In this document: positions 27,540 through 64,000 of the stretch, one piece after another
Position numbering within the stretch: position 1 is the stretch's first letter
How the letters are laid out: every line of letters begins with the position of its first letter
DNA from: Escherichia coli
Lineage (GTDB): Bacteria > Pseudomonadota > Gammaproteobacteria > Enterobacterales > Enterobacteriaceae
NCBI RefSeq assembly: GCF_044647545.1
Contig: NZ_CP172818.1
Length of the DNA: 64,000 bases
Direction: 5' to 3' (one strand)
The notes under the pieces: generated by a model
Told to the model about the DNA's origin: nothing
The model's input: only the letters and a program-made list of their open reading frames with translations
The model's database searches: none
Made by a program: the position numbers and the translations under genes

Positions 27540-29273
27540 GTGAATATTCAGGCTCTTCTCTCAGAAAAAGTCCGTCAGGCCATGATTGCGGCAGGCGCGC
27601 CTGCGGATTGCGAACCGCAGGTTCGTCAGTCAGCAAAAGTTCAGTTCGGCGACTATCAGGCTAACGGCATGATGGCAGTTGCTAAAAAACTGGGTATGGC
27701 ACCGCGACAATTAGCAGAGCAGGTGCTGACTCATCTGGATCTTAACGGTATCGCCAGCAAAGTTGAGATCGCCGGTCCAGGCTTTATCAACATTTTCCTT
27801 GATCCGGCATTCCTGGCTGATCATGTTCAGCAGGCGCTGGCGTCCGATCGTCTCGGTGTTGCTACGCCAGAAAAACAGACCATTGTGGTTGACTACTCTG
27901 CGCCAAACGTGGCGAAAGAGATGCATGTCGGTCACCTGCGCTCTACCATTATTGGTGACGCAGCAGTTCGTACTCTGGAGTTCCTCGGTCACAAAGTGAT
28001 TCGCGCAAACCACGTCGGCGACTGGGGCACTCAGTTCGGTATGCTGATTGCGTGGCTGGAAAAGCAGCAGCAGGAAAACGCCGGTGAAATGGAGCTGGCT
28101 GACCTTGAAGGTTTCTACCGCGATGCGAAAAAGCATTACGACGAAGATGAAGAGTTTGCCGAGCGTGCACGTAACTACGTGGTAAAACTGCAAAGCGGTG
28201 ACGAATATTTCCGCGAGATGTGGCGCAAACTGGTCGACATCACCATGACGCAGAACCAGATCACCTACGATCGTCTCAACGTGACGCTGACCCGTGATGA
28301 CGTGATGGGTGAAAGCCTCTACAACCCAATGCTGCCGGGTATCGTGGCGGACCTGAAAGCCAAAGGTCTGGCAGTAGAAAGTGAAGGCGCGACCGTCGTA
28401 TTCCTTGATGAGTTCAAAAACAAGGAAGGCGAACCGATGGGTGTGATCATTCAGAAGAAAGATGGCGGCTATCTCTACACCACCACTGATATCGCCTGTG
28501 CGAAATATCGTTATGAAACGCTGCATGCCGATCGCGTGCTGTATTACATCGACTCCCGTCAGCATCAACACCTGATGCAGGCATGGGCGATCGTCCGTAA
28601 AGCAGGCTATGTACCGGAATCCGTACCGCTGGAACACCACATGTTCGGCATGATGCTGGGTAAAGACGGCAAACCGTTCAAAACCCGCGCGGGTGGTACA
28701 GTGAAACTGGCCGATCTGCTGGATGAAGCCCTGGAACGTGCACGCCGTCTGGTGGCAGAAAAGAACCCGGATATGCCAGCCGACGAGCTGGAAAAACTGG
28801 CTAACGCGGTTGGTATTGGTGCGGTGAAATATGCGGATCTCTCCAAAAACCGCACCACGGACTACATCTTCGACTGGGACAACATGCTGGCGTTTGAGGG
28901 TAATACCGCGCCATACATGCAGTATGCTTACACGCGTGTATTATCCGTGTTCCGTAAAGCAGAAATTGACGAAGAGCAACTGGCTGCAGCTCCGGTAATC
29001 ATCCGTGAAGATCGTGAAGCACAACTAGCAGCTCGCCTGCTGCAGTTTGAAGAAACCCTCACTGTGGTTGCCCGTGAAGGCACGCCGCATGTGATGTGTG
29101 CTTACCTGTACGATCTGGCCGGTCTGTTCTCTGGCTTCTACGAGCACTGCCCGATCCTCAGCGCAGAAAACGAAGAAGTGCGTAACAGCCGTCTGAAACT
29201 GGCACAACTGACGGCGAAGACGCTGAAGCTGGGTCTGGATACGCTGGGTATTGAGACAGTAGAGCGTATGTAA
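27540..29273 (+). CDS. argS: Arginine--tRNA ligase, 577 aa
   Basis: Class I aaRS with the HVGH motif ([10 protein letters not shown]). Confidence 0.97.
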
Positions 29274-29326
29274 TCGGTTATACCAACAGCCGATGTCATG
29301 GAGACCGCTTTTTATTTTTTTATCAT

Positions 29327-29719
29327 TCAACGATAATTCACAATCACTTCATTCCGTTGTACCTTTAGCGGCGGAATTAACCGCCCACCGCCAGGCACTT
29401 CCCAGATAAATCGCAACGGTTCTATCGCCGGTATACCGGAAAAGGCCACGGTGGTTCCACTCTGCCCTTCTAATTCGACACAACGAGATTGCGAACACAA
29501 GCGAACCCGCAGTCCTGCAGGTGTCGGGCCGATAAGCTGATAACGCCACGCCACCAGCGTCATCAATCCTGCAGCAGGTTGTCGAGTAGAAAGAGGCGCT
29601 GACGACATCGATTCACCACGGTGATTCAGCGTAACGCCCACACTACTCGCCTGCCACATCCCCTCCCCCGCGGCTTGCACCAGCAGCGGAAACAATAATA
29701 TTGCTAATAAGGTTCTCAT
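29327..29719 (-). CDS. flhE: Flagellar protein FlhE, 130 aa
   Basis: MRTLLAILLFPLLVQAAGEG... signal peptide; last gene of flhBAE; its ATG overlaps the flhA stop. Confidence 0.9.
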   Translation of the reverse strand: MRTLLAILLFPLLVQAAGEGMWQASSVGVTLNHRGESMSSAPLSTRQPAAGLMTLVAWRYQLIGPTPAGLRVRLCSQSRCVELEGQSGTTVAFSGIPAIEPLRFIWEVPGGGRLIPPLKVQRNEVIVNYR

Positions 29720-31797: not shown

Positions 31798-32938
31798 GGG
31801 TCGGTTTCTCGTTAATAAAATCCAGGGCTTCCGGCACCGGAAGATGAGTAGGTTGTACAGGGCGCTGTCCACCAGCCAGACGCCAGCGTTTCAGTTGCCA
31901 GACCCAGGCCAGCACTTCCGCCACTGCGGCGTACAGTTGACCCGGGATTTGTTGACCGATCTCCGCATGTCGATACAGCGCTCGCGCCAGCGGCGGCGCT
32001 TCAAGCGTCGGGACGTTATTTTCAGCGCCAATTTCACGAATGCGCAGCGCGACCAGCCCTGCACCTTTAGCGACCACTTTCGGTGCGCTCATTTTGTTTT
32101 CGTCATACTGCAACGCTACCGAATAGTGGGTCGGGTTATTGACAATGACATCCGCTTTCGGCACATCGGCCATCATCCGACGCCGTGCAGCCGCTCGCTG
32201 CATCTGACGTATCCGCCCTTTAACATGGGGGTCGCCTTCGCTTTGTTTGAACTCATCACGAATATCCTGCCGCGACATACGCAGCTTTTTCAGGTGGCTG
32301 AAGATTTGGAAAAAGACGTCAAATCCCACCATTGGAATGACACCAAGCACCACCAGCAGTGCGCATAGCCCTACCAGATCCATCGCATTACCCATGGCGG
32401 TAATCGGAGACTCGGCCATTAAGCGCATCATCTGCGGCCAGTGATGCCAGAGAAAAAACCCCGTCACGCTGCCAACCAGGATGGTTTTCAAAATTGCCTT
32501 AAGCAACTCCGCGCCAGTCTGAGCCGAGAACATCCGTTTAATGCCCGGTAGCGGGTTGAGTTTGGAAAACTTCGGCTGCAAGGATTTGCCGCTAAATACC
32601 AGCCCTCCCAGCATGACCGGAGAAATGAGCGCCACCAGCACCACGCCGCTAATCAGTGGCAGCAGCGCCAGCATGGCTTCTCTGATCAGCAGAATAATCT
32701 GCCCGAGGATCAGATTCGGGTCATTGATAATACTGTGATCAAAATGCAGCCCAGCGGAGAGCATGCCCGACAATCGACGGGCCAGCGACACACCGCCAAA
32801 CCAGATAACACACACGCCCACTAACAAAATCAGCAGCGAGGTCAGTTCACGGGAACGCGGGATTTGCCCCTCTTCCCGCGCTTTTTCTAGTCGGTGAGGT
32901 GTGGGGGCTTCTGTTTTGTCGTCGCTCTCGTCAGACAC
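31790..32938 (-). CDS. flhB: Flagellar export apparatus switch protein FlhB, 382 aa
   Basis: Contains the NPTH autocleavage motif (VNNPTHYSVAL). Confidence 0.95.
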   Translation of the reverse strand: MSDESDDKTEAPTPHRLEKAREEGQIPRSRELTSLLILLVGVCVIWFGGVSLARRLSGMLSAGLHFDHSIINDPNLILGQIILLIREAMLALLPLISGVVLVALISPVMLGGLVFSGKSLQPKFSKLNPLPGIKRMFSAQTGAELLKAILKTILVGSVTGFFLWHHWPQMMRLMAESPITAMGNAMDLVGLCALLVVLGVIPMVGFDVFFQIFSHLKKLRMSRQDIRDEFKQSEGDPHVKGRIRQMQRAAARRRMMADVPKADVIVNNPTHYSVALQYDENKMSAPKVVAKGAGLVALRIREIGAENNVPTLEAPPLARALYRHAEIGQQIPGQLYAAVAEVLAWVWQLKRWRLAGGQRPVQPTHLPVPEALDFINEKPTHE

Positions 32939-33105
32939 GTCGCCAATCCTGGAAAGAGTATTAAGCGTAAATGATGCCAGATCGCAAAGCGTTCAATGGT
33001 TTGAGTAAGGGGCAAAACAGGCGGGATTTAGGGCGTTTGCTGCCAAAAATAGATAGTGATGCGTTTAGTCGGATGCGGCGTTTTCGCTTATCACGCCTCA
33101 AAAAA

Positions 33106-33188
<83 letters not shown>

Positions 33189-33204
33189 GTTAAGGCAATA
33201 CAAA

Positions 33205-33849
33205 TCAAAATCCAAGACTATCCAACAAATCGTCCACCTGATCCTGACTGGCTACCACACCGGCTTTGCTGGTATCGACCTGAGGTCCATTAAGCAAACT
33301 CTGGTTTTCACGTTTTGGACGCGACTCCTGTTCCGGGATGTTTTCCAACAGCACCATCAGCAACTGACGTTCGATCTCCTGAATGACATCCATCATCCGC
33401 TTAATAACCTGCCCGGTGAGATCCTGAAAATCCTGCGCCATCATGATTTCCAGCAGTTGCGCGTTAGTAAAGCTGGTATGCGCGGGGACATCTGCCAGAA
33501 ATTGCCGCGTATCTGTTACCAGTTCTCGGGCGTCGGCAAGGTCAATCGGATCGGCAAACCAGTCATCCCAACGTTGGGTTAACGCTTTTGCTGATTTCTC
33601 CATTTGATCCTGATGCGGTTGTGACGCCTCAACACTGTTCAGCGCCCGCTCCGCAGCCTGGGCGGTCATCTGCACAACATAGTACAAACGATCGCGCGCA
33701 TCGGGGATGGCTTCCGCCGCTTCGGCAATGGCCTGATCCAGCCCCAGCTCCCGCAAACTGTCGCGCAGCATACGCGTCAGGCTGCCGATGCGCGCAATGA
33801 TATCGCCAGCTGAATGCTCGTCAGCAGGTTTGATTGATGGTTGCATCAT
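33205..33849 (-). CDS. cheZ: CheY-P phosphatase, 214 aa
   Basis: [36 protein letters not shown]...; start at the internal Met. Confidence 0.95.
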
Positions 33850-40171: not shown

Positions 40172-43063
<2,892 letters not shown>

Positions 43064-43067
<4 letters not shown>

Positions 43068-43951
43068 GCTTCCTCGGTTGTCGTCTGTTGTTGCGGATTT
43101 TTCACCGCACGCACATGCTCTTCCAGTTCAATAAACGACGGACGTTCGCTGGAATAGAGCGTTTTGCGACCAAACTCAACGGCGATAGGCGGTGCGTAAC
43201 CGTTCAGATTAGATAGCAGTGTGACTTTGACGCACTGCATCATTTTGCTGGTTTCGGCGCTTTTCTGACGTAAAACACTCGCTAATGGGGAAATAAATCC
43301 GTAAGCCAATAAAATGCCGAGGAAAGTCCCCACCATCGCATGTGCGATAAGCGCCCCCAGCTCGGCGGCAGGACGATCGGCTGAACCTAACGCGTGAACG
43401 ACCCCCATTACAGCCGCGACAATACCAAACGCCGGAAGTGAGTCCCCGACCAACGCCAGACTGTTCGCCGGGACTTCTGCCTCGCTTTCGTGCGTCTCAA
43501 TCTCTTCATCCATCAGAGCTTCGATTTCGAAGGTGTTCATGTGACCGCTGATAATCAGGCGCAGATAATCGACGATAAATTCAAGCATGACGCTATCCGC
43601 AAGGATGCGTGGGTAGCTGGCGAAGATCTCGCTCTCACGGGGATTTTCAATATCGCGTTCCAGCGAAAACATCCCCATCTGCCGCGATTTCGCCATCAAC
43701 CGATAAAGCAGAGCCAGCAGATCCATATACATTGCTTTGGTGTATTTGGAGCGACGAAACAGCAACGGCAGCGCCTTCAGCGTGCCTTTAATCGCTTTGC
43801 CATTATTGCCGACGATAAACGACCCAATCCCTGCACCGGCAATAATCACCAGTTCAGCGGGTTGATAGAGTGCTCCAAGGCTTCCACCGGTCATCAAATA
43901 ACCGCCGAAAACTGTACCGAGAACAACCAGGTAACCTAATAAGATAAGCAC
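43064..43951 (-). CDS. motA: Flagellar stator proton-channel protein MotA, 295 aa, GTG start
   Basis: [23 protein letters not shown]...; first codon is GTG; stop overlaps the motB start. Confidence 0.95.
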
Positions 43952-44008
43952 GACATCATCCTTCCACTGTTGACCATGACAGGATGTTCAGTCGTCAGGC
44001 GTTAACGC

Positions 44009-44041
44009 GCGATTGGGGCAAAAAAAAGCAGCGGTACGTCG
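44009..44041 (-). terminator. Hairpin plus T8 between flhC and motA (flhDC terminator or attenuator)
   Basis: gcagcggtaacgacgtaccgctgc followed by tttttttt on the minus strand, about 37 nt after the flhC stop. Confidence 0.6.
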
Positions 44042-44077
44042 TTACCGCTGCTGGAATGTTGCGCCACACCGTATAAG

Positions 44078-44656
44078 TTAAACAGCCTGTACTCTCTGTT
44101 CATCCAGCAGTTGTGGGATAATATCGGCAGGATTCTGGGAAAGTTTACGTCTTTTTACTGCCCGGGATGGCGGCTGACATAAGCTGCAGGCAAAGCTGCC
44201 AACAGGCTGGTGAGCGTGGGTAATAAAATTGCCGCCGCAGCAGTTGCAGCTGGAAAGTTGCAGTAATCCACTTTCAACAAACCGTACCAATGTCCAGGCA
44301 CGGGTTAATGCCAGCAGCGGTCCGTCTTCTGCTTGCGGGCACTGTTCAAGGTATAAACGGTAGGCTTTGATCACCGCATCGACGCCATTACACAAGCCGG
44401 TTTTCAGTAAAAACTGCCATGCGTTACAGAACATTGAAGCATGAACGTTTTGTTCCCAGGTCATAAACCAGTCGGTTGAGAATGGCAGCATGCCTTTCGG
44501 CGGTGGGCTTCCGCGTAGTTCTTTATAGAGTTTTATCAGGCGTCCGCGACTTAACTGTGTTTCGCTTTCCAGCATCTGCAAACGAGCGCCCAGGGTGATC
44601 AATTCCATTGCCAGCTGAATATCCCGCGCTTCCTGAACAATGCTTTTTTCACTCAT
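44078..44656 (-). CDS. flhC: Flagellar master regulator subunit FlhC, 192 aa
   Basis: [33 protein letters not shown]...; zinc-binding Cys cluster. Confidence 0.97.
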
Positions 44657-44658
44657 GA

Positions 44659-45009
44659 TCAGGCCCTTTTCTTGCGCAGCGCTTCTTCAGGCTGATTAAC
44701 ATCATTCAGCAAGCGTGTTGAGAGCATGATGCCGGTATGAATTTGCTGGAGATCGTCAACGCGGGAATCTTGCGTCAATTGAGTAATCGTCTGGTGGCTG
44801 TCAAAACGGAAGTGACAAACCAGTTGATTGGTTTCTGCCAGCTTAACCATTTGCGGAAGAGTCAGTGCCGCTAACGTTGTCGCCATTTCTTCATTTATGC
44901 CGAGACGAAACATAGCGGACGCTTTGTCCTGAACAATCAGACGCTGTGCAAGTAGTAAATATGACAAGTTGATGTCATAAATGTGTTTCAGCAACTCGGA
45001 GGTATGCAT
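44659..45009 (-). CDS. flhD: Flagellar master regulator subunit FlhD, 116 aa (119 aa if the upstream MGI Met is used)
   Basis: [38 protein letters not shown]... Confidence 0.95.
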
Positions 45010-45270
45010 TATTCCCACCCAGAATAACCAACTTTATTTTTATGCGGTCTCACCGCACCCCGTGATGTCGCCGGGAAGCCCCGGTAAAAAATAATTAGCA
45101 TTAGAATAGTTGCGATAAGCTGCAATAAGCAGAACCACCTTTTTGGTTTAATAAGTCCTTACAAATAGAAAGGGGTCTTTACACTTATCTAAGATTTTTC
45201 CTAAATCGACGCAACTGTACTCGTCACTACACGCACATACAACGGAGGGGGGCTGCGATTTTCAATAATG

Positions 45271-45286
45271 TGTGATGCAGATCACA
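45271..45286. promoter_or_regulatory. CRP-binding site in the flhDC promoter
   Basis: Perfect palindrome TGTGATGCAGATCACA about 260 nt upstream of the flhD ATG, matching the CRP half-sites TGTGA/TCACA. Confidence 0.75.
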
Positions 45287-45961
45287 CAAAACACTCAATT
45301 ACTTAAATTTAACACAAATCATCAACAAAAATACAACTTCCATTCAATCTCTTTATTAATACACCTTCCACCATCCACATATAAAACACATTCGAATTCT
45401 TACACCACCCTCAACTAAAGGACACAAAAACAAACCAACACCTCAAAAACACCACATACACTAAACAAGCAGCATCACCCATAAATGTATAAGTCATACT
45501 TTTGTTTTGGGTGTATTTCAATCTGTTAAAAAGTTTTTCGCAACGCTAGCAAGCAAAAATGAAACAGGAATAATCGAAATGGGATGTTGCGCACAGTTAA
45601 AATAACTCACCGTAAATAATCATCTGCTATAAATAATCACTTTCATGCAATACCCGATAAGCTATTTTTAAACAGACACTTACCGCACAACAAACTAATT
45701 AAATACAAAGAAAGGCAACAATCAACCTAATGTTAATAAAATGTTTTGCATATATTAACCACTTGTTTAATATGGGAAATCAGTACATTATTTTCTTATA
45801 AATACAGTTGAAATCATATGATCACCGAGAGTGATTGATTAATTATCTTTACTAATGACCAGACTAATATTTACCTGTTTTACTGAGTTGGGATTGCGTC
45901 GTTTCTCCATTAGGAGTAAAGCTTTAATGTCACCTGCAGTTCACAGAATAAGGAACAGGTT

Positions 45962-46390
45962 ATGAGCTATAGCAATATTCTTGTCGCCGTTGCGGTTACA
46001 CCGGAAAGTCAGCAACTGCTGGCAAAAGCGGTATCTATCGCCAGGCCAGTAAAGGGACACATCAGTTTAATTACTCTCGCTTCCGACCCGGAAATGTACA
46101 ATCAATTAGCCGCGCCGATGCTTGAAGATTTACGCAGCGTGATGCAGGAAGAAACGCAAAGCTTTCTTGATAAGTTAATTCAGGATGCGGGGTATCCCGT
46201 TGACGAGACGTTTATTGCCTACGGTGAGTTAAGCGAACATATTCTGGAGGTTTGTCGCAAACATCATTTCGATTTGGTGATTTGCGGTAATCACAATCAC
46301 AGTTTCTTTTCGCGAGCATCCTGCTCGGCGAAAAGAGTGATTGCCTCTAGTGAGGTCGATGTGCTGTTAGTTCCACTTACGGGAGATTAA
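45962..46390 (+). CDS. uspC: Universal stress protein C, 142 aa
   Basis: MSYSNILVAVAVTPESQQLLAKAVSIARP... UspA-family fold. Confidence 0.92.
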   Translation: MSYSNILVAVAVTPESQQLLAKAVSIARPVKGHISLITLASDPEMYNQLAAPMLEDLRSVMQEETQSFLDKLIQDAGYPVDETFIAYGELSEHILEVCRKHHFDLVICGNHNHSFFSRASCSAKRVIASSEVDVLLVPLTGD

Positions 46391-46396
46391 CCGCTC

Positions 46397-49749
<3,353 letters not shown>

Positions 49750-58010: not shown

Positions 58011-58097
58011 TGGTACCCGGAGCGGGACTTGAACCCGCACAGCGCGAACGCCGAGGGATTTTAAATCCCTTGTGTCTACCGATTCCACCATCCGGGC
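58011..58097 (-). tRNA. leuZ: tRNA-Leu (anticodon UAA)
   Basis: Reverse complement reads GCCCGGATGGTGGAATCGGTAGACACAAGGGATTTAAAATCCC...GGGTTCAAGTCCCGCTCCGGGTACCA, 87 nt with long variable arm. Confidence 0.97.
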
Positions 58098-58109
58098 TCG
58101 GGAAGAAAG

Positions 58110-58183
58110 TGGAGGCGCGTTCCGGAGTCGAACCGGACTAGACGGATTTGCAATCCGCTACATAACCGCTTTGTTAACGCGCC
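58110..58183 (-). tRNA. cysT: tRNA-Cys (anticodon GCA)
   Basis: Reverse complement reads GGCGCGTTAACAAAGCGGTTATGTAGCGGATTGCAAATCCGTCTAGTCCGGTTCGACTCCGGAACGCGCCTCCA. Confidence 0.97.
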
Positions 58184-58237
58184 AAATTCTTCAGGCCTTT
58201 CAGCCAGACATCCGCTTGACGCCGATGTCTTTTAAAC

Positions 58238-58313
<76 letters not shown>

Positions 58314-58464
58314 ATTCATCAAGCAATCAGTTAATCACTTGATTTTATTATCGTCTGGCAATCAGTGCCGCCGTTCGATGCGTTGCATTCTACTTACCTG
58401 GCGCGATGAGTCAACGATATTTTTCACCACTTTTGATCGTTTGCTGAAAATTGCGCCGAAACGA

Positions 58465-59013
58465 TCACTGATCAAGCAAATCTGCACGCGCAGCGCTCAA
58501 ATATTGCAACATTGACCACAGCGTCAGTACCGCAGCCACAAAGAAAAGTGCAATACCGGCGTACTCAACCCAAATGTTCGGACGCCACAGCAGCCAGGCC
58601 AACGCCACCATCTGGGCAGTTGTTTTCACTTTCCCAATCCAGGAGACAGCCACGCTACTGCGTTTACCCAACTCCGCCATCCATTCGCGTAGCGCAGAAA
58701 TAATAATTTCACGGGCGATCATCGTTGCCGCCGGTAATGTCACCCACCAGCTGTGATAATGCTCGGTTACCAGCACCATGGCGATAGCCACGAGAACTTT
58801 ATCTGCGACAGGGTCAAGGAAAGCACCAAACCGGGTACTCTGGTTCCAGCGGCGTGCCAGAAAACCATCGAACCAGTCAGTCACCGCCGCGACGCAGAAA
58901 ATGAGCGCGGCGGCAAACGGCGACCAGGTGACAGGCAGATAAAAGACCAATACAAAGAATGGGATAAGGATGACACGGAACAGTGTAAGCAACGTAGGGA
59001 TATTAAATTGCAT
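58465..59013 (-). CDS. pgsA: CDP-diacylglycerol--glycerol-3-phosphate 3-phosphatidyltransferase, 182 aa
   Basis: [27 protein letters not shown]... CDP-alcohol phosphatidyltransferase motif. Confidence 0.95.
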
Positions 59014-59069
59014 AATGACGGGTAACTATCTGTTGTCAGTAAGATTACCCCTATGTTGCTACAGAGACA

Positions 59070-60902
59070 TCAATGTTTCAACGACCAGAAGATCTTTTCT
59101 GCCAGACCTTGCGAAATACCCGGCACTTTTGCAATTTCCTCAACGCTGGCGTTACGTAAACCTTGCAAACCGCCCATATATTTCAACAACATTTGCCGAC
59201 GTTTTGGCCCGACGCCTTCAATGGTTTCCAGGGAACTGGTATTTTTGACCTTCGCCCGTTTCTTACGGTGCCCACCAATCGCGTGATCGTGAGATTCATC
59301 GCGAATATGCTGGATAACATGCAGCGCGGGAGAATCTGGCGGCAAACTGAATCCCTCACCTTCCGGCTCAAAGAACAGCGTTTCCAGCCCAGCTTTACGG
59401 TCTGCTCCTTTGGCAACGCCAAGTAGCAGCGGATGATTTTTATCCCATGAGACATCCAGTTCGGCGAAGACATTTTTCGCCTGCGCAAGCTGGCCTTTGC
59501 CGCCGTCGATAAGGATCACATCCGGGATCTTACTGTCGTCAATGGCTTTACCATAACGCCGACGCAGCACCTGATTCATCGCCGCATAATCATCGCCCGG
59601 CGTGATGCCAGTAATGTTATAGCGCCGATACTCCGCACGCAGCGGGCCGTTAGCATCAAACACCACACAGGAGGCGACGGTTTGTTCACCCATGGTATGG
59701 CTGATGTCAAAGCACTCCATCCGCTTCACTTCCGGCAATTTCAACACGCTGGCAAGCGCGGTCAGTCGCTGGTGAACGGTAGATTGCTGCGAAAGTTTGC
59801 TGGTTAAGGCCGTCGCCGCATTGGTGCGCGCGAGTTTCAGATAACGCGCCCTATCGCCGCGAGGTTTGGTTTGAACATTAATCTTGCGTCCCGCCAGTTC
59901 TGAAAGGGAATCGGCGAGCAGCGTTTTATCGCTAAGATTAAAATCGAGCAGGATCTCACCCGGTAAGGTGCGCATCTGGCTGCCTTGTAAATAGAACTGA
60001 CCTACGAAGGTTTCCACCACCTCGCTCAGTTCCGTACCGCCAGGCACTTTCGGGAAATAGCTACGGCTGCCGAGCACTTTGCCCTGACGAATGAACAATA
60101 CGTGGACACAAGCCATGCCCGCATCAAACGCCACACCAATAACGTCAAGGTCGTCGCCGGTATTGGACACAAACTGTTTTTCGGTGACGCGTCGCACCGC
60201 CTGAATTTGGTCGCGAATACGTGCCGCTTCTTCAAACTCCAGATTCTGGCTGGCAGTTTCCATACGGCTAATGAGTTGCGTAAGCACCTGATCATCTTTG
60301 CCAGACAAAAACAGGCGCACATACTCGACCTGCTGAGCGTATTCTTCTTCACTCACCAGTCCTTCAACGCACGGTCCCAGACAGCGCCCTATCTGATATT
60401 GCAGACACGGACGCGAGCGATTGCGATAAACACTATTTTCGCACTGGCGAATGGGGAATATCTTTTGCAGTAACGCCAGTGTTTCACGTACGGCATAGCC
60501 ATTCGGGAACGGGCCGAAATATTCACCTTTGGCATGCTTCGCACCACGATGCATCGCCAGACGCGGGTGGGTATCGCCACTCAGGAAGATAAAAGGATAA
60601 GATTTATCATCGCGTAGCAAAACGTTGTAACGCGGCTGATAGAGTTTGATGTAGTTGTGTTCCAGCAACAGCGCTTCGGTTTCTGTATGAGTAACCGTTA
60701 CATCAATTTGCTGGATCTGGGCGACCAGCGCTTCGGTTTTGCGCGAAGCGAGGTTGCTACGGAAATAGCTGGAAAGCCGTTTTTTCAGGTCTTTCGCTTT
60801 GCCGACATAGATAACCGTACCACCAGCATCGTACATGCGATAAACGCCTGGCTGGCTGGTTACGGTTTTTAAAAACGCTTTTGCGTCAAACTGATCACTC
60901 AC
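59070..60902 (-). CDS. uvrC: Excinuclease ABC subunit C, 610 aa
   Basis: [47 protein letters not shown]... GIY-YIG N-terminal domain. Confidence 0.97.
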
Positions 60903-61555
60903 TGACTTGATAATGTCTCCGCATTACACAGACCATGGCGAATTGCCAGGTGAGTCAGCTCAACATCGCCATGAATGTTTAGTTTACTGAACATACGATA
61001 GCGGTAGCTGTTCACCGTTTTCGGACTGAGATTGAGCTGTTCTGAGATCTCATTGACCTTCTGGCCCTTGGTGATCATCAGCATAATCTGCAATTCACGT
61101 TCAGACAAACTGGCAAATGGGCTTTCTGTTTTTTCTGGTTCGATCTGGCTTAACGCCATTTGTTGAGCGATGTCATAAGCAATGTAACGCTGCCCTGAAT
61201 AGACAGAACGGATCGCACTCACGACTTCCTGCGGAGCCGCGCCTTTGCTGAGGTAGCCCGCAGCACCGGCCTGCATGACTTTCGCTGGTAAAGGGTTTTC
61301 TGTATGGACAGTAAGCATGATGATTTTGACATCAGCTGTGGAACGCGCGATTTTACGCGTCGCCTCAAGACCGCCAATGCCCGGCATACTCATGTCCATT
61401 AGCACCACGTCAACGGCATTTGCCCGGCACCACTTAACGGCGTCTTCACCGCACGATGCCTCACCGACGACTTTTATACCCTTTATATCTTCCAGAATGC
61501 GTCGTATCCCTGCGCGCACCAGTTCGTGGTCATCAACAAGTAGAACGTTGATCAA
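60899..61555 (-). CDS. uvrY: Response regulator UvrY (BarA/UvrY two-component system), 218 aa
   Basis: [33 protein letters not shown]... receiver plus LuxR-type HTH; stop overlaps the uvrC start. Confidence 0.96.
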
Positions 61556-62013
61556 AGGAATATCTCCAGAAATAGGGATAACGCTACTGATAGTTAGTCA
61601 TTCGTATATTAGCGGTTTTTATTGCAACTTTGAAACGTTAAAAATGGTGGGTATTCGATTTTTCTCTCGTTTTTGTAAATTCGATTGTCCACAGTTATGG
61701 TCACGCCCGTCACCAACGGCTTCCGGGATCGTTTCACAGTAAGCCCTGCGATGAAATGTGACAAAAATTGACTTTATTCAGCAAAAATGAAAATCAGCCC
61801 GCTGAATATGTAACATTAATTAACCCGAACAATACGGGCAAAAAACATTCATGATAAAAATATTTATTGGTCATTATATTAACGTATTTTATAGTACTGT
61901 TGATATCACGCTCAAAAAACAACCACTGCTATTTTTAGCAAAGCTTATGGTATACTCCGCCGCCTTAACATTTTTCACCGCAAATTTTCATTGCAACATG
62001 ACGAGGAAAATAA

Positions 62014-62238
62014 ATGAGTACGCCTGATTTTTCTACTGCCGAGAATAATCAAGAACTGGCAAATGAAGTCTCCTGCCTGAAAGCGATGCTGACGCTGATG
62101 CTGCAGGCGATGGGACAAGCTGACGCGGGCCGCGTGATGTTAAAGATGGAAAAACAGCTTGCGCTGATCGAAGACGAAACCCAGGCTGCAGTATTTTCCA
62201 AAACGGTTAAGCAAATTAAACAAGCCTACCGTCAGTAA
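62014..62238 (+). CDS. yecF: Small protein YecF (DUF2594), 74 aa
   Basis: [51 protein letters not shown]... Confidence 0.85.
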
Positions 62239-62242
62239 TATA

Positions 62243-62278
62243 AAACCGGCTGAGAGCGTGTCTTTCAGCCGGTTTTTG
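62243..62278 (+). terminator. Terminator between convergent yecF and sdiA
   Basis: Hairpin aaaccggctga...tcagccggttt followed by tttt. Confidence 0.6.
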
Positions 62279-62304
62279 CATCTGGCACGCAGAAAGAAAA
62301 GCGA

Positions 62305-63027
62305 TCAAATTAAGCCAGTAGCGGCCGCGTAACAGGCCACCTGGGTCTTATTCGGTGCATTGATTTTTTTCTGCATGTTTTTCTGATGGAAATTGACCGT
62401 ATTCTCAGAGATTGACAAAATCATCGCTATCTCTGCTGATGTCTTCCCTTCCGCCGTCCATTTCAGAATTTCTTTTTCGCGCTTGCTGAAATTCATCTCT
62501 GGCGTCATCACTATTTCATCATTTAAACGCATTAGAGCCATCAGACTTTCGCGCACCAGTAACTGCATTTTTAATTGCAGTTCATCACTAAGAATGGGTA
62601 TTTCGCGCGTGCTGCAACGGGAAAAGGACAAAAAGCCCAGCGCCCGATTTGGCAGCATTAAATACTGAGTGACACCGCGGCGTAAACCATGTGCGCGCGC
62701 AGCTTCCCATAACGGCTGTGCTTCGCTGAATAAGTCATCATTCCACATTAAATGGCCCTGACTAAAGTTTTCAGGGTTCAGCACAGGATCAATTGCGAGA
62801 AAATTTTTTGCCTGATAATAACTAACCCACGACTCAGGGTAATTGGTGTAGAAAGCCACTTTAGGTCGCGTGAATGGTACCGGGTGGCGAACACATAACG
62901 AATAGTAATCGTACTCCAGCTGCTGAGCCTGAAGCTCTATTTCATGGTAGACCTCTTCTGCGGCCTCCATCCTCTGAAAACGCAACAGCATCGTGCGAAG
63001 CCAGCTGAAAAAATCCGTATCCTGCAT
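62305..63027 (-). CDS. sdiA: LuxR-family acyl-homoserine-lactone-responsive regulator SdiA, 240 aa
   Basis: MQDTDFFSWLRTMLLRFQRMEAAEEVYHEIELQAQQLEYDYYSLCVRHP... autoinducer-binding plus LuxR HTH domains; start at the internal ATG. Confidence 0.95.
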   Translation of the reverse strand: MQDTDFFSWLRTMLLRFQRMEAAEEVYHEIELQAQQLEYDYYSLCVRHPVPFTRPKVAFYTNYPESWVSYYQAKNFLAIDPVLNPENFSQGHLMWNDDLFSEAQPLWEAARAHGLRRGVTQYLMLPNRALGFLSFSRCSTREIPILSDELQLKMQLLVRESLMALMRLNDEIVMTPEMNFSKREKEILKWTAEGKTSAEIAMILSISENTVNFHQKNMQKKINAPNKTQVACYAAATGLI

Positions 63028-63256
63028 AGTAAACCGCAACGCCCCTGAGAGTGAGTATCATTTATAATGATAATTCAAACTATCACATAAATAAGATTTA
63101 TATATAATTTATATTATTCAGGCAATGAATTACTTTTGCAAGCCATCGCATTCTCTTATGTTATTAATGAGTTATGCTGATTTGTTAAGCAGTTTTATCA
63201 CGTTTGAAGTGGCGCACCGCCCCGACTGGTGAATCGTCGGGGCTGATTTTTTCTTA

Positions 63257-64000
63257 TTATTGCAGCAGAAACTTCTCCAGGAACTGGCGGGTGCGAGGCT
63301 GCTGAGGATCGGCAAATAACGCTTTTGCAGCCCCCTGCTCGACTATCCGCCCCTGGTCCATAAAGATCGCCCGGTCCGCAACATCCCGGGCAAAGCTCAT
63401 TTCGTGCGTCACAATCACCATTGTGCGCTTTTCCTGCGCCAGCTGGCGGATGGTGTTCAGGACTTCGCCCACCAGCTCTGGATCCAACGCCGACGTTGGC
63501 TCGTCAAACAAAATCACCTCAGGACGCATTGCCAGCGCACGCGCAATCGCAACTCGCTGCTGTTGACCGCCAGACAAACGACGTGGATAGCTGGTTTCTT
63601 TACCGGCCAGCCCAACTTTCGCTAACAGCTCGCGAGCGCGCGCCGTGGCCTCTTCTTTTGGTTCGCCTTTGACGATCACCGGACCTTCAATAATGTTTTC
63701 CAGCACCGTACGATGCGGAAACAAATTAAAGTTCTGGAAGACAAACCCGACGTGTTGACGCAACTGGCGAATCAGCGATTTTTGCTGACTTAATGAACGT
63801 GCAGTATCAATAGTGATATCGCCAACGGTGATGGTTCCCGCTTCCGGTTGTTCCAGCAGATTTATGCTGCGTAGCAACGTGGTTTTGCCGGAACCACTCG
63901 GACCGATAATTGCCACTACTTCGCCAGGCTTCACCTCAAGGTCGATACCGTGCAGCACCGTCTGACCGTGGAATTTTTTCACCAGGTTCTTAACTTCAAT
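63257..64000 (-). CDS. tcyN: Cystine ABC transporter ATP-binding protein, 5' end beyond the window
   Basis: Walker A GPSGSGKTT, signature LSGGQQQRV; minus-strand reading frame continues past position 64000. Confidence 0.9.
   Translation of the reverse strand: MEVKNLVKKFHGQTVLHGIDLEVKPGEVVAIIGPSGSGKTTLLRSINLLEQPEAGTITVGDITIDTARSLSQQKSLIRQLRQHVGFVFQNFNLFPHRTVLENIIEGPVIVKGEPKEEATARARELLAKVGLAGKETSYPRRLSGGQQQRVAIARALAMRPEVILFDEPTSALDPELVGEVLNTIRQLAQEKRTMVIVTHEMSFARDVADRAIFMDQGRIVEQGAAKALFADPQQPRTRQFLEKFLLQ

Follow-up and report, generated by a model that had tools for sequence, protein, structure and literature searches.

Does the spacer between flhD and uspC in this window (the whole 64,000-nt stretch of E. 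coli DNA that was analysed) carry an insertion sequence, and does it allow any prediction of motility? That IS elements upstream of flhDC are polymorphic and affect motility is textbook knowledge, and an IS-free spacer is the normal state in E. coli. IS insertions in this region lead to higher flhDC expression and motility (PMC11237407; PMC5100188; PMC8652233), and in MG1655 (NC_000913.3) an IS1H with insA5 and insB5 is annotated between the two genes. The preliminary description of the window, made from the letters alone, had stated both points correctly. It took the region to be free of IS-derived sequence and predicted lower basal motility from this.

The features of the locus are collected in Table 1. 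flhC and flhD are read from the minus strand, uspC from the plus strand, and a 351-nt flhD, the identical gene, is annotated in the genomes FDAARGOS_497, WB61 and MG1655. With this flhD the spacer is 45010-45961, or 952 bp. It had earlier been delimited as 45019-45961, 943 bp; these coordinates and the gene identities stand, but the start came from a GTG-extended flhD ORF that reaches 45018, and the length itself is abnormal. The putative flhD transcription start at 45207 gives a 198-nt leader, a length that we take from what is established for the flhD promoter of K-12. The annotated end of the antisense RNA asflhD in MG1655 is equivalent to the same position in a gap-free alignment to that genome.

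Table 1. Features of the flhD-uspC locus, in positions of the 64-kb window
Feature	Position	Strand	Description
flhD CDS	44659-45009	minus	351 nt, ATG at 45009; from the ORF list and the annotation of relatives
flhD 5' leader	45010-45207	minus	putative transcription start at 45207, 198 nt upstream of the ATG
TTAA	45303-45306	.	-96 to -99 from the putative flhD start; abuts the insert
Insert, left part	45307-45399	.	93 nt with one G (within TTCGAATTC)
Insert, right part	45400-45479	minus	80 nt, deletion-only derivative of the insA-proximal IRL end of IS1
CATAAATG	45480-45487	.	8-bp flank that is duplicated around IS1H in MG1655; single copy here, right of the insert
Distal flhD-uspC spacer	45480-45961	.	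includes the uspC promoter region; 173 bp farther from the flhD promoter
uspC CDS	45962-46390	plus	142 aa; from the ORF list and the annotation of relatives

The species norm for this spacer is 779 bp and 952 bp is abnormal, since an uninterrupted match of 777-780 bp was found in 58 of 60 genomes, sampled at even steps from the 5,421 matching E. coli. The closest relatives also have 779 bp. With the 6 kb around the locus as the query, many ST648-like genomes (FDAARGOS_497, WB61, ECONIH1 and others) match at 100% identity, but the matches are 172-173 bp shorter. Local alignment to FDAARGOS_497 places the difference exactly: 44659-45306 is identical over all 648 bp, 45480-46390 (the distal spacer and uspC) is identical to the directly following 911 bp, and the 173 bp between them (45307-45479) have no counterpart. 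The nearest genomes over 40000-64000, SCU-301 and 2014C-3075 (99.8%), also lack these 173 bp. The locus is therefore not colinear with an IS-free spacer of about 779 bp, but consists of an ordinary 779-bp ST648-like spacer, about 4% different from that of K-12, and a 173-bp segment.

The segment has an unusual composition (A78 C55 T35 G5) and is the sole part of the window in which any base falls to 5% or less over 100 bp. It begins at -100 from the flhD transcription start, a position that depends on the putative start at 45207. Its left edge lies directly after ...CAATTACTTAA and its own left end reads ATTTAACAC.... The region around -100 is a published IS1/IS5 hot spot of the flhD promoter, and the TTAA at -96 to -99 is a published IS5 target within it (PMC5100188). 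At the right edge the segment ends in ...GCAGCATCACC, followed by CATAAATGTATAAG. The order in MG1655 is ACTTAA-CATAAATG-IS1H-CATAAATG-TATAAG, with IS1H also ending in ...GCAGCATCACC. The right junction, GCAGCATCACC to CATAAATGTATAAG, is thus the same as the IS1H junction of MG1655, with the terminal 11 nt identical, and the insertion point and orientation are those of IS1H as well.

The right part of the segment is derived from IS1. All 80 nt of 45400-45479 occur in order within nt 655-768 of IS1H (its terminal 114 nt), with no substitution and no added base. None of 2000 composition-matched shuffles of these 80 nt fits into 114 nt, and the shuffles need 326 nt on average. Local alignment to IS1 gives z = 13.6 for nt 133-173 of the segment and z = 4.8 for nt 94-132, tests in reduced alphabets support the same origin, and blastn matches IS1 at 45439-45465. 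The similarity is significant and reaches the terminus of the element at the chromosomal junction, so these outer 80 nt represent the IS1 end, changed by deletions only, at the IS1H junction. The loss is strongly base-specific. Retention in the 80 nt is 0.95 for A, 0.88 for C, 0.47 for T and 0.17 for G (losses of 5%, 12%, 53% and 83%), and corresponds to some 30 individual small deletions, which remove G or T in almost every case and are accompanied by no substitution.

The left 93 nt behave differently. Their relation to IS1 is at chance level in cheap-deletion local alignment on both strands, in tightest-subsequence density and in alphabets with G or with G and T dropped, and a G-dropped comparison with the rest of the window also gave no match. 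The whole segment can be embedded exactly as a subsequence of the target duplication plus IS1H; this embedding is uninformative for the left part because shuffles of that part embed equally well. Retention density switches abruptly from about 0.7 to chance at 45399/45400, next to TTCGAATTC.

The presence of IS-derived sequence at 45400-45479 overturns the view that the interval is IS-free and leaves the prediction of lower basal motility, which was drawn from that view, without its basis. What had been said of an intact element holds: none is written in the window. The spacer contains no transposase ORF, its largest ORF is 48 aa (no ORF of at least 60 aa had been noticed earlier either), direct or inverted repeats of at least 12 nt are absent from it, and tblastn detected no InsA or InsB coding potential anywhere in the 64 kb. 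An intact IS1 would have about 768 bp with insA and insB, both terminal inverted repeats and a target duplication of 8-9 bp. The segment has 173 bp; only the IRL side is recognisable, internally deleted, while at the left end, ATTTAACAC..., no IRR is present; and CATAAATG is present on the right side only, with no left copy of the duplication. It resembles the IS1H of MG1655 (CGSC 7740 type) in its site after ...ACTTAA and by CATAAATG, its orientation and its right junction, but that element is complete, whereas here there are no ORFs of the element and one degraded end. As written, the segment is predicted to have neither coding nor transposition capacity.

The 48-aa ORF, which starts with GTG and runs from 45272 to 45418 on the plus strand, lies mostly within the G-poor segment and would encode a low-complexity product in which Q, N, T and H are abundant. 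This ORF is due to chance, since an exact-protein look-up found no such protein on record; the same was found for a second small ORF that spans the segment. An Rfam scan of 43000-47000 matched no family, and a promoter and terminator consensus scan gave fewer sites than in shuffles.

The segment was also compared with short non-autonomous elements. It is like solo IS ends and MITE-like derivatives in being short, non-coding and bearing an IS terminus, but a MITE has inverted ends on both sides, a target duplication and numerous copies. A MITE or other non-autonomous IS derivative is ruled out by the lack of inverted repeats, of a target duplication and of other copies in the collections searched.

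No other record in the collections searched contains the full segment. It is absent from 5,426 complete E. coli genomes, in both near and distant search modes, and from plasmid and phage collections, and five exact 27-31-mers from it are absent from collections of genomes, metagenomes and viral contigs. The part with the IS1 end and junction matches 54 of the 5,426 genomes and the rest matches none; 30 of these 54 were listed, and they are derivatives of MG1655 or, like BS-04, K-12-like assemblies. The segment is thus unique to one record, in which its flanks are identical to those of relatives.

The segment is probably not genuine DNA but a consensus, collapsed and corrupted, of an IS1 insertion that was either real or admixed. 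Because the flanks are 100% identical to those of insert-free relatives, an IS1 at this site has had no time to decay by evolution, and some 30 deletions biased to G and T with zero substitutions are not an evolutionary signature. We know of no mutational process that causes a deletion-only, strongly base-specific loss. The error signature is moreover accompanied by other damaged sites in the same record, a 44-nt poly(A) and a destroyed terminator (described below). The uniqueness of the segment supports a corrupted consensus, as do these two further intergenic corruptions, which are also unique. A technical cause acting on an underlying intact IS1 would then be expected.

The sequenced DNA would have contained molecules with and without an IS1 (768 bp plus target duplication) at the flhD hot spot. 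The IS1 may have come from a culture that was heterogeneous for a motility-activating insertion, or from admixed MG1655-like DNA. A draft with or without the 0.78-kb insertion would have been corrected base by base on mixed reads, the correction halting before convergence, so that the consensus step retained only a base-biased subset of the IS1. Base-by-base consensus polishing would be the mechanism on general grounds; the proposal names no particular software or chemistry for the preferential loss of G and T. A subpopulation as the source fits the hot spot, and admixed MG1655-like DNA fits the identical site and orientation.

A precedent for this reading is found in BS-04 (NZ_CP172819.1), an independent RefSeq assembly with a milder form at the same locus. 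BS-04 is a 'complete genome' that is K-12-like but labelled as a broiler isolate; a literature search found no paper describing the assembly. Its IS1 (about 1792-2330 of the compared locus) has about 540 nt left, with 235 deletions, one mismatch and one insertion, and carries no annotated features. Retention is 0.79 for A and 0.81 for C versus 0.57 for G and 0.62 for T, and it rises in a gradual gradient, starting at 0.38 on the IRR side and reaching 1.0 at the IRL end, between clean flanks. This IS1 looks like a consensus artefact. The two cases are alike in locus, in deletion-only change, in the preferential loss of G and T, in retention that rises towards the IRL end and in their clean flanks, but BS-04 keeps about 70% of the element, recognisable throughout, while the window keeps 22% by length, with only the last 80 nt recognisable.

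The published insertions at the hot spot also support a corrupted consensus. They lie at about -100, adjoining the TTAA at -96 to -99 (PMC5100188), and cultures that are mixed for an IS upstream of flhDC have been documented, including a Keio strain and CGSC 7740 (PMC11237407), so within-culture heterogeneity is known for this locus. Those insertions are intact elements in laboratory K-12, whereas the window has an ST648-like background and an element that is not intact.

Three observations count against a corrupted consensus. No test links the left 93 nt to IS1, and the switch at 45399/45400 is abrupt, unlike the gradual gradient of BS-04; both lie outside a simple dropout model. Elsewhere the window shows very high quality, which one would seldom see in a noisy assembly. 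A globally noisy assembly is ruled out, as there are 9 to 46 differences per 12-32 kb relative to relatives, like ordinary SNPs.

The abrupt boundary resembles a junction of two different DNAs, and together with the genuine homology to the IS1 end and the exact IS1H-type junction it could mean that the segment really exists in the chromosome, as an IS1 remnant with one end (the IRL side) joined to 93 bp of A/C-rich DNA and left by a hot-spot insertion and a later rearrangement. Such a remnant would, as a spacer, lengthen the distance between the flhD promoter and the regulatory DNA upstream by 173 bp, at the site where IS insertions activate flhDC, and would change, probably raise, flhDC expression. 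IS insertions up to 476 bp upstream are known to stimulate flhDC, which has been taken to mean that upstream topology matters (PMC5100188). The pattern of small deletions between flanks identical to relatives speaks against this origin, as do the absence of a second IS end, of a target duplication and of other copies in any collection searched, and the presence of clearly unnatural sequence elsewhere in the window (the 44-nt poly(A)). We regard a real remnant as unlikely.

It is also improbable that the strain is IS-free with normal (low) basal flhDC expression, and that the extra bases are noise from minority MG1655-like molecules introduced by contamination or barcode cross-talk. In favour of this, the site, orientation and junction are those of the MG1655 IS1H, the junction occurs in only 54 of the 5,426 genomes (all of those listed being MG1655 derivatives or K-12-like), and an IS-free spacer is normal in the sampled genomes. 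However, -100 is a recurrent hot spot, which makes an independent insertion plausible, and the interval as written is not IS-free.

A genuine, G-depleted and A/C-rich non-coding insert would have to come from base-biased deletion or repair acting on a fresh IS1, or represent a new one-ended IS1 derivative, and it would rewire flhDC by displacing the upstream control region; we hold this to be very unlikely. An engineered or synthetic insertion upstream of flhDC (a three-letter A/C/T design or a cloning scar) might account for the near absence of G and for the overlapping BstBI/EcoRI motif TTCGAATTC at the internal boundary, but no FRT or lox scar is recognisable by eye, a designer would hardly add an IS1 end with so many losses at the junction that IS1H has in nature, and the other anomalies of the window would be left unexplained, which makes it a most implausible origin.

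Under the preferred reading of a corrupted consensus, what the locus implies for motility depends on the source of the IS1. If the segment reflects an IS1 in the sequenced culture, higher rather than lower motility would be predicted, and an IS1 really present in the isolate would be a natural case, outside K-12, of a motility-activating insertion at the hot spot. If the source was instead admixed MG1655-like DNA, the strain itself could be IS-free and the preliminary description could be right by accident. It would be wrong to treat the interval as regulatory DNA clean of any IS, or to derive a motility phenotype from it.

At least three intergenic stretches of the window are locally corrupted, which could mislead promoter, terminator and mobile-element analyses of this record. 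In the flhB-cheZ spacer there is a 44-nt poly(A) at 33107-33150, the sole homopolymer of at least 10 nt in the window; none was found in 120 kb of relatives. No genome among the 5,426 E. coli covers 32900-33350 to at least 80%. The spacer sequence at 33053-33150 appears to be a blend, with the common island-free REP-type spacer on the left and the right end of the dgt island of relatives (CCCCCTGCTATCGG...) on the right. The poly(A) region is probably a sequence corruption.

The other stretch lies between the convergent argS and flhE, where about 10 small indels are clustered at 29277-29330 and destroy the terminator hairpin. Relatives have AGCCGATGTCATGGCAGACATCGGCTTTTTT and the window has AGCCGATGTCATGGAGACCGCTTTTTATTTTTTT. 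The best identity over 29200-29400 among the 5,426 genomes is 93.2%, compared with about 99.9-100% for the surroundings. The coding regions of the window are likewise about 99.9-100% identical to relatives.

Other differences from the relatives concern islands. Between flhB and cheZ, the nearest relatives FDAARGOS_497 and SCU-301 have a 2.4-kb island, possibly a cassette of the defence type, with genes for a dGTP triphosphohydrolase (dgt) and for a hypothetical protein; it is missing from the window (about 33050-33150). A second FDAARGOS_497 island, by yecA, encodes a type I restriction-modification system, a DUF262 protein, an M48 peptidase and a cold-shock-domain protein. It is absent from the window, which at 58067-64000 runs, like SCU-301, into tRNA-Leu/Cys/Gly, pgsA, uvrC and uvrY. 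The segment 16653-33052 (aspS to flhB) is 98.2% identical to SCU-301 and 99.93% identical to FDAARGOS_497, and from 33151 on the identity to SCU-301 is 99.7-99.9%. Judged from these identities, the two parts appear to form an ordinary recombination mosaic of the ST648-like lineage.
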